A stretch of 64,000 nucleotides of DNA from a virus (Duplodnaviria; Heunggongvirae; Uroviricota; Caudoviricetes). The stretch lies in the IMG/VR virus record IMGVR_UViG_2872147552_000001, one strand, 5' to 3'. The translations under genes and the position numbers were made by a program. Each line of letters starts with the position of its first letter. Positions within the stretch are counted from its first letter, which is position 1. This document shows positions 56,432-59,871 of the stretch, in pieces. The notes under the pieces were generated by a model. That model was not told the DNA's origin and ran no database searches. It saw nothing but the letters and a program-made list of their open reading frames with translations.

Positions 56432-57667
56432 TTAACCAAATATTTTTTGAACAACTTCACGAGCCGCTTGCGCAGAAGCTGAAGGGAGTTTGTTAATGAA
56501 AGAACGCTCAATACCTGTCACAAAGTCGCCTCGCATCATTCCAATCTTGGCCGACAACAAAAGTTCACGAGGGCCAATTGGCTGACTGATAAGGTGTTCT
56601 TCGTATCCATCGCGAACGATACCGGCAAACTTAACCATCTTTTCTGCGTATTCATCCACGATACCGGCATTTATCAACATGTTGATCTCTGCCTCTTTGC
56701 TCATGTATTTCACATTCGAAACGATGCCAAAACGCGAAAAGTTCGCGGCGTTCTGGATGTTTGTACCCTGGTACAAGCCGGTTTCATCACCAGAACCGTT
56801 TGTGTTGCCAGTGCCAATGAAAGCAAACCGTTCATGCGGAGTAATGCGACGCCATTCTGGAGTTGCCTCTTTGATGACCAACGCCTCACCTTCCAGCACT
56901 GGCTGATACACGCCAAGAATTTGTGGAAACGCAAAGTCGTATTCATCCGCGAGGTAAACCCAGCCATGCTTCATTGCGAGCGCAAGCAAGCCAGGCTCGA
57001 AATACGTAGAGCCATCACGCGCCAGAATTTGCCCCGTAACATGTGCCTCTTCCATTGATGCTGTATGTTGGGCACGGATCAACGGACGATTGAGCAAAGC
57101 ACATAGCTGTGTAGGCAATGACGATTTGCCTGTTCCTGCATGACCCCACAAATAGCCAGGTATGCCAAGTTCAAGCATCATGAAAATATCTTTGATCAGT
57201 TCGAAGTCGCCATATACGTAGCCCTTCTTCACTTCTGGAACGAACTCTGGATACGGCGTATTGACGTTTACGCTAACCATGAGCGGCGTCCCACGTTTTG
57301 TTCCGAGTTCTTCCACCGTTACGTTTAGCAGTTCGTGAGCTGCGACCAGATCTGTCTTGTACTCAACTGTGCCTGTGTAGCCTGGGCTACTGGTCAAGCC
57401 AGAAGATTTCGCCATTTCGCTTTTTTGCTCGGCACGTTTAGCTTGAATTGCATCAAGTGCCTTTTTCGATAGCGTTGGTTCATCTGGAAACTGCGTTGTG
57501 TACATTTTCAGTACGGTGTCAGGATCGGCATCTTTTACTGACTCAGGAATGCCCTCGCAATTACCATTGGCTACATGGGACTTAAAATAGTGAAATGATT
57601 TGCCGCACCACTTGCAAACAAGGTAATCAGAAGGATTTTTATCATTTTGCAGTGCAGTAGTAGTCAT
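56432..57667 (-). CDS. AAA+ ATPase, CobS/MoxR-like
   Basis: Walker A GHAGTGKSS, Walker B region, N-terminal CxxC; followed by vWA protein. Confidence 0.6.
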   Translation of the reverse strand: MTTTALQNDKNPSDYLVCKWCGKSFHYFKSHVANGNCEGIPESVKDADPDTVLKMYTTQFPDEPTLSKKALDAIQAKRAEQKSEMAKSSGLTSSPGYTGTVEYKTDLVAAHELLNVTVEELGTKRGTPLMVSVNVNTPYPEFVPEVKKGYVYGDFELIKDIFMMLELGIPGYLWGHAGTGKSSLPTQLCALLNRPLIRAQHTASMEEAHVTGQILARDGSTYFEPGLLALAMKHGWVYLADEYDFAFPQILGVYQPVLEGEALVIKEATPEWRRITPHERFAFIGTGNTNGSGDETGLYQGTNIQNAANFSRFGIVSNVKYMSKEAEINMLINAGIVDEYAEKMVKFAGIVRDGYEEHLISQPIGPRELLLSAKIGMMRGDFVTGIERSFINKLPSASAQAAREVVQKIFG

Positions 57668-57724
57668 GCGCTTTTCCTTTGTTCTCTAATGAGCGTTCAA
57701 GTTCTTATATAAATATACCATTAA

Positions 57725-57747
57725 CTATGGTAAGTAGTTACTTATCG
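57725..57747 (-). promoter_or_regulatory. class B palindrome
   Basis: ctatggtaagtagttacttatcg. Confidence 0.4.
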
Positions 57748-57762
57748 TTAAGGCTGTTTTAA

Positions 57763-59871
57763 TTACTTCAAAATGATACGAGATAGTTCAGTAACTACAG
57801 ATGAACCAAGACTATCAACACTAGTTACCAGGGCATGATTTGCGTAAAATCTCTCCGGTGCATCAGTCATGATGCCAATTGCCATCAAATCAATGTCAGT
57901 CTGCGTTTCAATTTGCTTCGTAACCGAACGCAAATGGGCGTCAAAACCTCTCCCAACAGCCCACGGCGCGCCATCGCTCAGAACAAGCATGATCTTCCTG
58001 TCCTCCAAGCGACCGGAAAATAACGATGCAAGGCTGGCTATGCTTTCACCATCCACGTTATTAAGAAGTGGGAATGTGTAGCCTACGCACCCCATACGTG
58101 AGCGAACTTCGCGAGAATTTGCTTTTTCATTCCAATTTTTGATGATAGGTAGCATTAAAGATTCAAAGCGAGAGAACTCATATTTGATAGCCTTAAGTTC
58201 TCCTGCTGCCATATGACTGCCAAATGTAGTGAAGCCGGTGATAATGTTGGGAACATTTATTCGATCAAGTGCATCGGCGATGGTATATGCACTTGCAAGA
58301 GCTAGTTTTATCGTTTCGCCACTCATTGAACCCGATAAATCAATCACTTGTTGAACACAGGCGTTAACGGCTTTAGATTCTTCTTTTTTACGAAACACGC
58401 GATCATCATTCATTGTTAATCTGTAGATACTTGAACCATGAATGCGCCCCCGACGCTGGCCAGGTATAAACTGAACTCTGTTTCTGCTTGCTATTGCACG
58501 TTCCAGGTCTTTTGCCAGCGTCGACGAAACACCTGACGAAAGGTGCTTTTCAATATATTTGTCGAAGAGTTGGTTGCCTTCAGGAACGATGCGATAACGG
58601 CTGATTGGATATCCACCTAAATCAATATCGGAGAATGTTTTAATAAGCCGTTTGATATGGGCTTCTGCCTGATCAATCGAGCCGATGAAGTCGTATGAGC
58701 GATTGTATGGCCTGTATTCGCTTTTCGAGCTTTCTGTTAACTCGCTTTTAATCGTTTCGGATAGCGCATCTTCTGTCATGCCTCCGACTTCATCTTCCAT
58801 GCTATCCAACTCCTCTAAAGCCTCTTCCAGACTCATTTTTGACGGAGTTGGAATGTCTGAAGAGCCGTCTTCTGTCGTTTTTCTTTTTTCGTGGTCAGCG
58901 GTTAATGATTCTGACGCCGCGTTATCAGAAGCATCAGAATCTGATACCGCTTTATCATTTTCTGTATCATCGAATATTGTTTCTGATGATTCAGGATTAT
59001 CTGAATCATCACTGTCGTTATTATCATGTTTGTGCTTACTATGTGACTCTGATTTAATAGATTTGTGATTATCTAACGATGAGGGTGTCTCATGATCTTC
59101 GTTGTCTTCATTGTTTTCTCCAGAGGCATCCGTCTGGTCAGCGTCTGAAGGATCGGAAGTTTTTCCCGGAGCTGACTCCTTACCTTTGCTTTCACTTTCA
59201 GTGTCTTTGAGGATCTTAGCTATGGTCGCAGCCACCTTTACACAATCCTCGGTGCAAGACATGTTACGCACGGCCACATCGATACCATGTTCTTTTAATA
59301 ATGAAATTGGTTTCTCAATGACAGGCCAATATTCATCCATGAAATCTACGAACGGTGCTTGGCCATCCCAGGCTCTTACAACCGGACAGAGAAAGAAGTT
59401 TAGAAAAAGCGCGCGCTGATCTTTGCCACAATAAGCAATAGCCTCTGAAGCCTTTGGTTTAAAGACTTTTTCGATTATAAGGCGCTGAGTTGCCATCAGA
59501 TTACGTCTTGTTCCGTTAAAGACCTGACCCATTTTTCGCTCGATGAACACGTCTTCTAAGGCATTCCATAGCGACCAGGAAGGAACGCGTCCTTTTTCTC
59601 TCATTTTGTTGGACACACGAATATCGGTAAACAAAATGTGAGCAACCTCATGATCGAGAAATCCGCGCACAGCATTCATCAATGCCGGTGTTGCGTTATC
59701 CGGGATTGATGGGATGTTTACGAGAATTGGCTCTCCATCATCGTTATAGCGTACATAAGCGTCGTCCCCTCGTTCTGCAACAGGGATGTTTTTACCTGAA
59801 AGGAGAGCGACTACTCGTTTTACACTGTCACGGAAGTCCTGAACCTCTTTGATGGAACGTTTTTTAGACAT
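57763..59871 (-). CDS. von Willebrand factor A domain protein, CobT-like
   Basis: C-terminal MIDAS motif DLSGSMSG; long Ser/Asp/Glu-rich linker. Confidence 0.55.
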   Translation of the reverse strand: MSKKRSIKEVQDFRDSVKRVVALLSGKNIPVAERGDDAYVRYNDDGEPILVNIPSIPDNATPALMNAVRGFLDHEVAHILFTDIRVSNKMREKGRVPSWSLWNALEDVFIERKMGQVFNGTRRNLMATQRLIIEKVFKPKASEAIAYCGKDQRALFLNFFLCPVVRAWDGQAPFVDFMDEYWPVIEKPISLLKEHGIDVAVRNMSCTEDCVKVAATIAKILKDTESESKGKESAPGKTSDPSDADQTDASGENNEDNEDHETPSSLDNHKSIKSESHSKHKHDNNDSDDSDNPESSETIFDDTENDKAVSDSDASDNAASESLTADHEKRKTTEDGSSDIPTPSKMSLEEALEELDSMEDEVGGMTEDALSETIKSELTESSKSEYRPYNRSYDFIGSIDQAEAHIKRLIKTFSDIDLGGYPISRYRIVPEGNQLFDKYIEKHLSSGVSSTLAKDLERAIASRNRVQFIPGQRRGRIHGSSIYRLTMNDDRVFRKKEESKAVNACVQQVIDLSGSMSGETIKLALASAYTIADALDRINVPNIITGFTTFGSHMAAGELKAIKYEFSRFESLMLPIIKNWNEKANSREVRSRMGCVGYTFPLLNNVDGESIASLASLFSGRLEDRKIMLVLSDGAPWAVGRGFDAHLRSVTKQIETQTDIDLMAIGIMTDAPERFYANHALVTSVDSLGSSVVTELSRIILK

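Follow-up and report, generated by a model that had tools for sequence, protein, structure and literature searches.

The closest characterized relatives of the two genes discussed here are CobS and CobT, the motor and the adaptor of cobaltochelatase. According to a 2026 preprint, the N-terminal domain of genuine CobT has an M48C-peptidase-like fold, its disordered linker spans approximately 90 residues, and its shaft inserts into the CobS ring (bioRxiv 10.64898/2026.07.21.739949). In T4-like group 2.2 jumbo phages, a MoxR ATPase is paired with a metallopeptidase protein that bears a von Willebrand factor A (vWA) domain, and a role in virion assembly was proposed (Iyer et al. 2021, PMC7824862). 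A hypothesis on the tailed viruses of archaea and bacteria holds that viral CobS and CobT operate with host CobN (PMC8651126). We analyzed such a pair, a CobS-like AAA+ ATPase of 411 residues and a CobT-like adaptor of 702 residues, in a 64,000-nucleotide stretch of DNA from a tailed virus (IMG/VR record IMGVR_UViG_2872147552_000001; hereafter, the window). Over 7.4 kb, the locus shares 97.8% identity with Escherichia phage Cyrano (pLF82) and approximately 80% with Salmonella phage SSU5, and it matches 782 plasmid records from Klebsiella, Escherichia, Enterobacter, Yersinia, Salmonella, and others. The near-identical DNA and the gene order shared with described members identify the element as a known SSU5-type phage-plasmid.

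In our reading, to which we assign a probability of roughly 50%, the pair is a phage version of the CobS/CobT motor-adaptor: an ATP-driven remodeller, probably proteolytic, that acts on a client protein in the lytic replication phase. The genes and their general architecture were already known and annotated, and this is not a new kind of system. What is added here is a contrast of the catalytic motif with genuine CobT, a zinc finger on the ATPase, a conserved four-cysteine neighbour (orf67), and the placement of the pair in replication modules across phage lineages.

The ATPase matches Pfam AAA_5 (2e-15) and phrog_249, a family labelled 'porphyrin biosynthesis' (2e-106). It contains a Walker A motif (GHAGTGKS, residues 175–182), a Walker B motif (VYLADEY), and an N-terminal C18xxC21. 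The alignment with CobS from the Protein Data Bank (PDB; 9ujv_A) covers the whole AAA+ module (residues 142–411, E = 1.8e-25). In 38 relatives, G175, G178, and K181 of Walker A, D241 and E242 of Walker B, and N288, R312, R352, and R367 are invariant. To judge from these residues, the protein is a catalytically intact MoxR-class AAA+ ATPase.

The adaptor matches Pfam CobT (N-terminal part, 3e-27), CobT_C (6e-83), and phrog_1576 (6e-301). A profile of the adaptor family matches the solved CobT chain 9uka_G (E = 5e-64) over the shaft region and the metal-ion-dependent adhesion site, or MIDAS. Residues 440–702 align with CobT residues ~355–616, including the shaft fragment Q373–R413 and the MIDAS site. 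In the adaptor alignment, D511, S513, S515, and D633 are invariant, and K454, E457, R458, G471, L482, D489, R491, and F493 are conserved at 90% or more. The linker (residues 226–385) comprises 160 residues, among them 31 Ser, 24 Asp, and 24 Glu, and has a net charge of −34; its length differs from relative to relative, the whole protein having between 649 and 790 residues. The 702-residue protein therefore has the complete CobT architecture (M48-like N domain, acidic linker, shaft, and vWA domain with MIDAS). An AAA_5 protein with intact Walker A and B motifs beside a vWA protein with a complete MIDAS also defines MoxR-vWA pairs in the broad sense, and this arrangement is found here. An earlier reading made from the sequence alone had placed both open reading frames (ORFs) exactly as in Table 1 and had described a CobS/CobT-like pair of MoxR-class AAA+ and vWA proteins, an N-terminal CxxC, a C-terminal MIDAS, and a long acidic Ser/Asp-rich linker. 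These descriptions hold, the family assignment by profile matches far beyond chance and the MIDAS as D511-L-S-G-S515. It did not notice the intact HExxH motif of the vWA protein, nor that the CxxC belongs to a Ros/MucR-like zinc finger.

The HExxH motif lies in the N-terminal domain of the adaptor. The AlphaFold model of residues 1–225 (pLDDT 92.5) has a helix, a three-stranded sheet, and then helices, which corresponds to a zincin topology. HEVAH (residues 74–78) is placed in helix 62–81, and E106 and E111 are placed in helix 97–117. This layout agrees with the published description of CobT_N; a Foldseek search of the model against the PDB gave nothing significant. An exhaustive adaptor search yielded 5063 cluster representatives, of which the best 150 were taken. 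Motifs were counted in the window protein and the 146 of these representatives with at least 550 residues (n = 147, clusters at ≤50% identity). H74 and E75 are each conserved in 144/147 clusters, H78 in 143/147, E106 in 146/147, and E111 in 147/147; the zincin signature, HExxH with a Glu on the following helix, is thus 97–100% conserved. HExxH, E106, and E111 are also invariant in the adaptor alignment A1. Genuine CobT, in contrast, reads D-S-[LM]-A-L-R in place of HExxH and keeps both Glu residues, as seen in two independent sequences. One is the crystallized chain, and the other comes from an alphaproteobacterial contig, where it lies beside a CobS with a CobS_N domain; the latter gene is frameshifted in the assembly, and its N domain is intact. 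The C-terminal fragment of CobT in the PDB, used as a query, returned partial proteins only, and the genuine CobS-CobT locus was recovered through one match. In a viral structure library, vWA proteins from tailed viruses of bacteria and haloarchaea share this N domain.

The pair scores far below the NCBIfam equivalogs of the cobaltochelatase subunits. The ATPase reaches 84.9 bits with the CobS model (TIGR01650, cut-off 558.55), and the adaptor reaches 69.1 bits with the CobT model (TIGR01651, cut-off 759.05), in which only residues 297–697 align. The CobS_N domain (PF12556) is present in genuine CobS (locus L002), whereas the window ATPase shows AAA_5 only and has a zinc-finger N-terminus instead. 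By these profile scores and domains, the two proteins are distant relatives of CobS and CobT and not cobaltochelatase orthologues. The zinc-finger module, C18-x2-C21-x4-H26-x4-H31...Y56...P61...S67, is invariant in the ATPase alignment A4, and its motif occurs in 89 of the 96 distinct CobS-like ORFs. Of 27 relatives, 22 give a match to Pfam ROS_MUCR (PF05443), the best at E = 7.8e-7; the window copy has a 12-residue insert and no ROS_MUCR match by itself. Genuine CobS and the ATPase of Vibrio phage ICP2 lack the finger. A literature search for MucR-CobS fusions found nothing usable.

The linkage of the pair with replication genes is real. In every viral locus with sufficient sequence (148/148), the CobS-like gene directly follows the CobT-like gene; DnaE is encoded within 3.5 kb downstream of the CobS-like gene in 128/128, down to approximately 30% identity. 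The sequence-only reading had named a loss of linkage among relatives as evidence against its interpretation, and these counts show the opposite. The viral relatives were confirmed by an alignment with a distant first row; single distant queries (P0256, P0258, and P0261) confirmed none. In species-representative genomes, the two genes are adjacent in 23 of the 24 loci with enough downstream sequence, the exception being a Vibrio locus with a partial CobT-like match only, and three loci have the reversed order. The hosts span a range that includes Enterobacterales, alpha- and beta-proteobacteria, a cyanobacterium, and a Chloroflexi metagenome-assembled genome (MAG), and many of the loci lie on contigs of about 100–118 kb.

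Independent support for the replication-gene linkage comes from two unrelated phages. In the podophage ICP2, which has Pol A, a peptidase-vWA gene followed by an AAA+ gene is found upstream of those for primase, helicase, and polymerase, and the adaptor motif is HECYH. S-PM2, a T4-like cyanophage, encodes a 'Peptidase' and CobS between gp46 and gp45/44/62; the former carries HEVGH and NVIEDARIEK as well as an acidic linker and DxSxS. The sequence-only reading had suggested a chaperone-like role in replication tied to the replicase. A role specific for DnaE is weakened because the pair also occurs in replication modules with Pol A (ICP2) and with a T4-type replisome (S-PM2).

The genes are transcribed leftward on the minus strand in the order orf70, CobT-like, CobS-like, orf67, and dnaE. 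The pair is therefore upstream of dnaE in transcription, and the vWA protein precedes the ATPase; the placement of the pair directly downstream of the replicase, and of the vWA gene after the ATPase gene, in the sequence-only reading applies to plus-strand coordinates only. A helix-turn-helix (HTH) gene diverges from the operon, with an integrase gene and four tRNA genes on its far side. The Cyrano counterpart of the HTH gene, CYRAN_45, is annotated as 'putative repressor'. A consensus promoter scan gave no minus-strand promoter upstream of orf70, so the start of the operon is placed by gene layout only. In the Cyrano record, the pair (CYRAN_47/48) is accompanied upstream by helicase, primase, and ligase genes, then integrase and repressor genes, and downstream by dnaE, hicAB, uvsY, gp32, and an exonuclease gene. 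The published list of genes that Cyrano expresses as a lysogen includes the neighbouring repressor gene but not the pair. Moreover, a plasmid with the insertion sequence IS100 inside dnaE is still maintained, and thus at least the distal part of the operon is not needed to maintain the plasmid. A function in the lytic cycle agrees with both points. The pair probably belongs to the core lytic genes, in an operon that diverges from a putative repressor and runs into the four-cysteine protein and DnaE. With this layout, the client is most likely a protein that is processed or removed when phage replication starts. A literature search on the expression timing of cyanophage cobS found nothing usable.

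By analogy with the solved CobSTN complex, we infer that the two proteins form a complex in which the shaft of the adaptor would sit in the pore of an ATPase hexamer. The N domain and the MIDAS face would hold a client protein between them, and ATP hydrolysis would remodel this protein. The retained active site probably also cuts the client. If so, the pair would be the two-chain equivalent of an FtsH-type ATP-dependent metalloprotease.

Several observations weigh against this reading. HExxH has degenerated independently in approximately 3% of the clusters (KEVAN, HQVAL, QQVAR, and SQVSQ) with the pair kept, and the adaptor of Pseudomonas phage nickie reads SEISK with the pair still present. 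Proteolysis therefore cannot be a requirement in all lineages. The zinc finger is acidic, with a net charge of −1 in the window copy and a median of −3 (pI 5.7) across 27 relatives. The basic DNA-binding surface of the Ros/MucR finger is found neither in the window copy nor in the relatives, so DNA binding cannot be assumed, and the idea that the finger tethers the ATPase to DNA was downgraded. The DnaE synteny in the SSU5/nickie super-lineage may reflect vertical inheritance of one collinear module. Finally, in Roseobacter phage CRP-810, the pair lies in the early region, not beside replication genes, and its order is CobS then CobT.

The main rival, which we regard as unlikely, is a non-proteolytic metal-centre chaperone that matures or reactivates a phage metalloenzyme, such as the PHP domain of DnaE, the class I ribonucleotide reductase (RNR), or the four-cysteine protein; HExxH would then bind metal or the client. 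The closest characterized relatives, to judge from the PDB matches to CobS/CobT, CbbQ, NorQ, and NorD, act on metalloenzymes. A conserved C-x13-C-x2-C-x5-C protein and DnaE are next in the operon, Cyrano encodes NrdA and NrdB, and the independent losses of HExxH in lineages that keep the pair are as this explanation would have it. However, H74, E75, and H78 are near-invariant (~97% of clusters), as an active peptidase predicts. ICP2 and CRP-810 have no four-cysteine gene next to the pair, and the polymerases that accompany the pair are of three different types.

Two further explanations are less likely, given where the pair lies in the genome and its core conservation across hosts. In the first, which appears quite improbable, the pair is a virion-assembly chaperone and processing protease, as proposed for the matching architecture in jumbo phages of group 2.2, with the MoxR/vWA pair of the Acidianus two-tailed virus as an analogy (Iyer et al. 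2021, PMC7824862). However, three phage lineages have the pair well away from the structural genes, within modules for replication or early functions. In Cyrano, structural genes occupy 0–28 kb and the pair 43–46.6 kb, in ICP2 the pair is upstream of primase, helicase, and polymerase, and in S-PM2 it is between gp46 and gp45. The second, whose chances we rate as similarly small, is a host-takeover or counter-defence protease that destroys a host protein (a defence effector, a nucleoid protein, or a part of the host replisome) and not phage replication proteins. The early position at the head of a lytic operon, the protease motif, the MIDAS recognition module, and the variable acidic linker suit such a protease, and a counter-defence role and a link with defence systems were raised by the sequence-only reading. 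Counter-defence genes are usually variable and host-specific, whereas these genes are core and keep their order in hosts that range from Enterobacterales through alpha- and beta-proteobacteria to a cyanobacterium and Chloroflexi, and they are also found in archaeal viruses. Their place is a core replication module that is conserved, rather than a variable island, and the defence link found no support in PADLOC, whose models matched neither the ATPase nor orf67. A DrmE match on the 702-residue protein (16 bits, residues 340–533, beginning in the acidic linker) was rejected as low-complexity.

The usual annotation in the literature, that such genes are auxiliary metabolic genes whose CobS and CobT join host CobN and boost cobalamin for nucleotide metabolism, agrees with the detectable homology and with the published hypothesis for tailed viruses (PMC8651126), but is scarcely credible here in view of the equivalog scores, the peptidase motif kept unlike real CobT, the replacement of CobS_N by a zinc finger, the RNR of the phage, and the absence of CobN from the Cyrano annotation. 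The Cyrano RNR is of the alpha plus beta type (NrdA and NrdB), and ThyX and DHFR are also encoded. An RNR of the alpha plus beta type is B12-independent. Neither CobN nor any B12-dependent enzyme appears in the annotation of Cyrano (97.8% identity), and the window itself was not scanned for CobN. To our knowledge (no E. coli genome was searched here), E. coli lacks both de novo B12 synthesis and CobN. With neither source, the idea that viral CobS and CobT hijack CobN is left without a partner. In a B12-engineering study in E. coli, CobN, CobS, and CobT from other bacteria had to be supplied for the aerobic cobalt-insertion step. A B12-making role in this host is almost certainly not what the pair serves.

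The labels in the databases point elsewhere again. In the Cyrano record (L001, OV696614.1), CYRAN_47/48 carry the labels 'dimethylbenzimidazole phosphoribosyltransferase' and 'cobalamin synthetase'; the enzymes with these functions are CobT and CobS of Salmonella, to which the pair is unrelated. A 2024 paper on CRP-810 also gives the pair the functions of the unrelated Salmonella CobS/CobT (PMC11288001). The sequence-only reading had called the function of such pairs in phages unclear, which agrees with the literature.

More broadly, viral 'cobS/cobT' might be a split FtsH-like ATP-dependent metalloprotease of unrelated lineages (SSU5/nickie, ICP2, and T4-like cyanophages), perhaps also of haloarchaeal viruses, which processes a client at the start of replication, and the chelatase motor might be a derived form that lost the peptidase. 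We offer this generalization tentatively and consider it doubtful. The pair is routinely labelled 'porphyrin/cobalamin biosynthesis' and counted among metabolic genes; the protease motif that is kept, the lack of CobN in the Cyrano annotation, and the replication modules of three phage lineages speak against the cobalamin label. If the generalization is true, several hundred phage genomes, and the virome surveys that count B12 auxiliary metabolic genes, are mislabelled. The pair is core to SSU5-type phage-plasmids, and point-mutant experiments are possible in a tractable E. coli phage-plasmid.

Table 1. Features of the locus, in window coordinates unless a locus is named.
Feature	Position	Strand	Matches and remarks
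orf70, small gene heading the leftward operon	59970..60182	-	phrog_2627 (5.8e-41); syntenic in SSU5-type loci, SSU5-type relatives only
CobT-like adaptor gene, 702 residues	57763..59871	-	Pfam CobT, CobT_C; phrog_1576
N-terminal zincin/M48-like domain, residues 1–225 of CobT-like protein	59197..59871	-	
HEVAH (HExxH), residues 74–78 of CobT-like protein	59638..59652	-	Candidate further ligand/catalytic residues E106, D107, E111
Acidic Ser/Asp/Glu-rich linker, residues 226–385 of CobT-like protein	58717..59196	-	Presumed disordered
Shaft-equivalent segment and vWA domain, residues 440–702 of CobT-like protein	57766..58554	-	
MIDAS D511xSxS515 of CobT-like protein	58327-58341	-	
CobS-like MoxR-class AAA+ ATPase gene, 411 residues	56432..57667	-	AAA_5; phrog_249
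Ros/MucR-like Cys2His2 zinc finger, residues 14–70 of CobS-like ATPase	57458..57628	-	
orf67, four-cysteine protein of 67 residues	56226..56429	-	phrog_6337 (2e-46)
Phage dnaE (Pol III alpha)	52745..56251	-	Pfam DNA_pol3_alpha, finger, HHH_6, and PHP domains
Divergent control region and HTH repressor gene	60183..60820	gene 60434-60820 on +	HTH_19, phrog_8
Sigma-70-region-2-like ORFs in distant relatives	L090:6144-6824; L088:11362-12054		

The third gene of interest, orf67, begins 2 nt past the stop codon of the CobS-like gene and overlaps the start of dnaE by 26 nt. Its homologues lie between the CobS-like and DnaE genes in 112 of 116 loci and reach 180–300 residues in distant relatives. The spacing C-x13-C-x2-C-x5-C is invariant and suggests an iron-sulfur or zinc module. 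The protein has no Pfam match, and the Cyrano record leaves it unannotated. No four-cysteine gene was found beside the pair in ICP2 and CRP-810, and orf67 was therefore rejected as an obligatory third component and is regarded as a companion specific to certain lineages. In some distant relatives, an ORF resembling sigma-70 region 2 (Sigma70_r2, 4.3e-7) lies between the CobS-like and the four-cysteine genes.

Many relatives (L053, L073-L078, L085, L105, L111-L113, L115, and L164) have the phage dnaE as two separate ORFs. An HNH endonuclease gene interrupts it in an E. coli plasmid, and IS100 does so in another plasmid (L194, CP100028.1; L193, NZ_AP027904.1). On the Halomonas sulfidaeris chromosome (L176) and in a Lichenihabitans MAG (L192), the pair and DnaE are broken into several ORFs, or DnaE is missing; these chromosomal copies look like decaying prophage remnants. 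CobS-like ATPases are present in 694 of approximately 50,700 phage records. They also occur in Staphylococcus Kayvirus and Listeria P100-like phages (~200 records); in Staphylococcus phage 812 (L196), no neighbour is annotated as vWA or CobT-like, which holds by annotation only because the neighbours were not scanned.

Between orf70 and the start of the CobT-like gene, there is a hairpin with a 9-bp stem, CTGCGCGAA-N15-TTCGCGCAG, without a T-run (~59915-59947, minus strand). GGTAAG/CTTACC repeats, including the palindrome GGTAAGTGCTTACC, occur in the divergent region at 60183-60433, adjoining the repressor gene, and may be operators. The four tRNA genes (Ser, Thr, Tyr, and Asn) lie at 62943-63596 on the minus strand beside the integrase gene; at the matching place, the Cyrano record annotates only three, without tRNA-Tyr.

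Among the described systems, CobS-CobT (9ujv/9uka; bioRxiv 10.64898/2026.07.21.739949) shares the most with the phage pair. Both have an AAA+ ATPase with a matching core and extra C-terminal helices, and an adaptor with an M48-like N domain, an acidic disordered linker, a shaft, and a vWA domain with MIDAS, and in both the genes are adjacent. The phage pair differs in its scores far below the equivalog cut-offs, in HExxH where CobT has D-S-x-A-L-R, in a Ros/MucR-like zinc finger where CobS has CobS_N, in the lack of an annotated CobN client in Cyrano, and in the order CobT then CobS within a replication operon. The T4-like jumbo phage and cyanophage pair (S-PM2d119/120) has the same two-gene architecture and order within a replication gene cluster, and the same N-domain signature, GHEVGH...NxxEDxxIE[KR]xM, followed by an acidic linker and a DxSxS vWA domain. 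However, the identity is only ~28% over the motif region, the cyanophage ATPase has no zinc finger, the replisome is gp43/45/44/62, and the published functional proposal for the jumbo phage pair is virion assembly. NorQ/NorD and CbbQ(/CbbO) likewise combine a MoxR-class AAA_5 protein with a vWA/MIDAS partner and give weaker PDB matches. The NorD match covers the vWA part only, with no homology detected outside it. The clients of these systems are metalloenzymes, and the known ones are absent here. FtsH is a single membrane-anchored chain in which an AAA+ motor is coupled to an HExxH zinc peptidase of family M41. The phage pair resembles it in logic only, as its motor and peptidase are separate soluble proteins that would be joined via the vWA/shaft adaptor.

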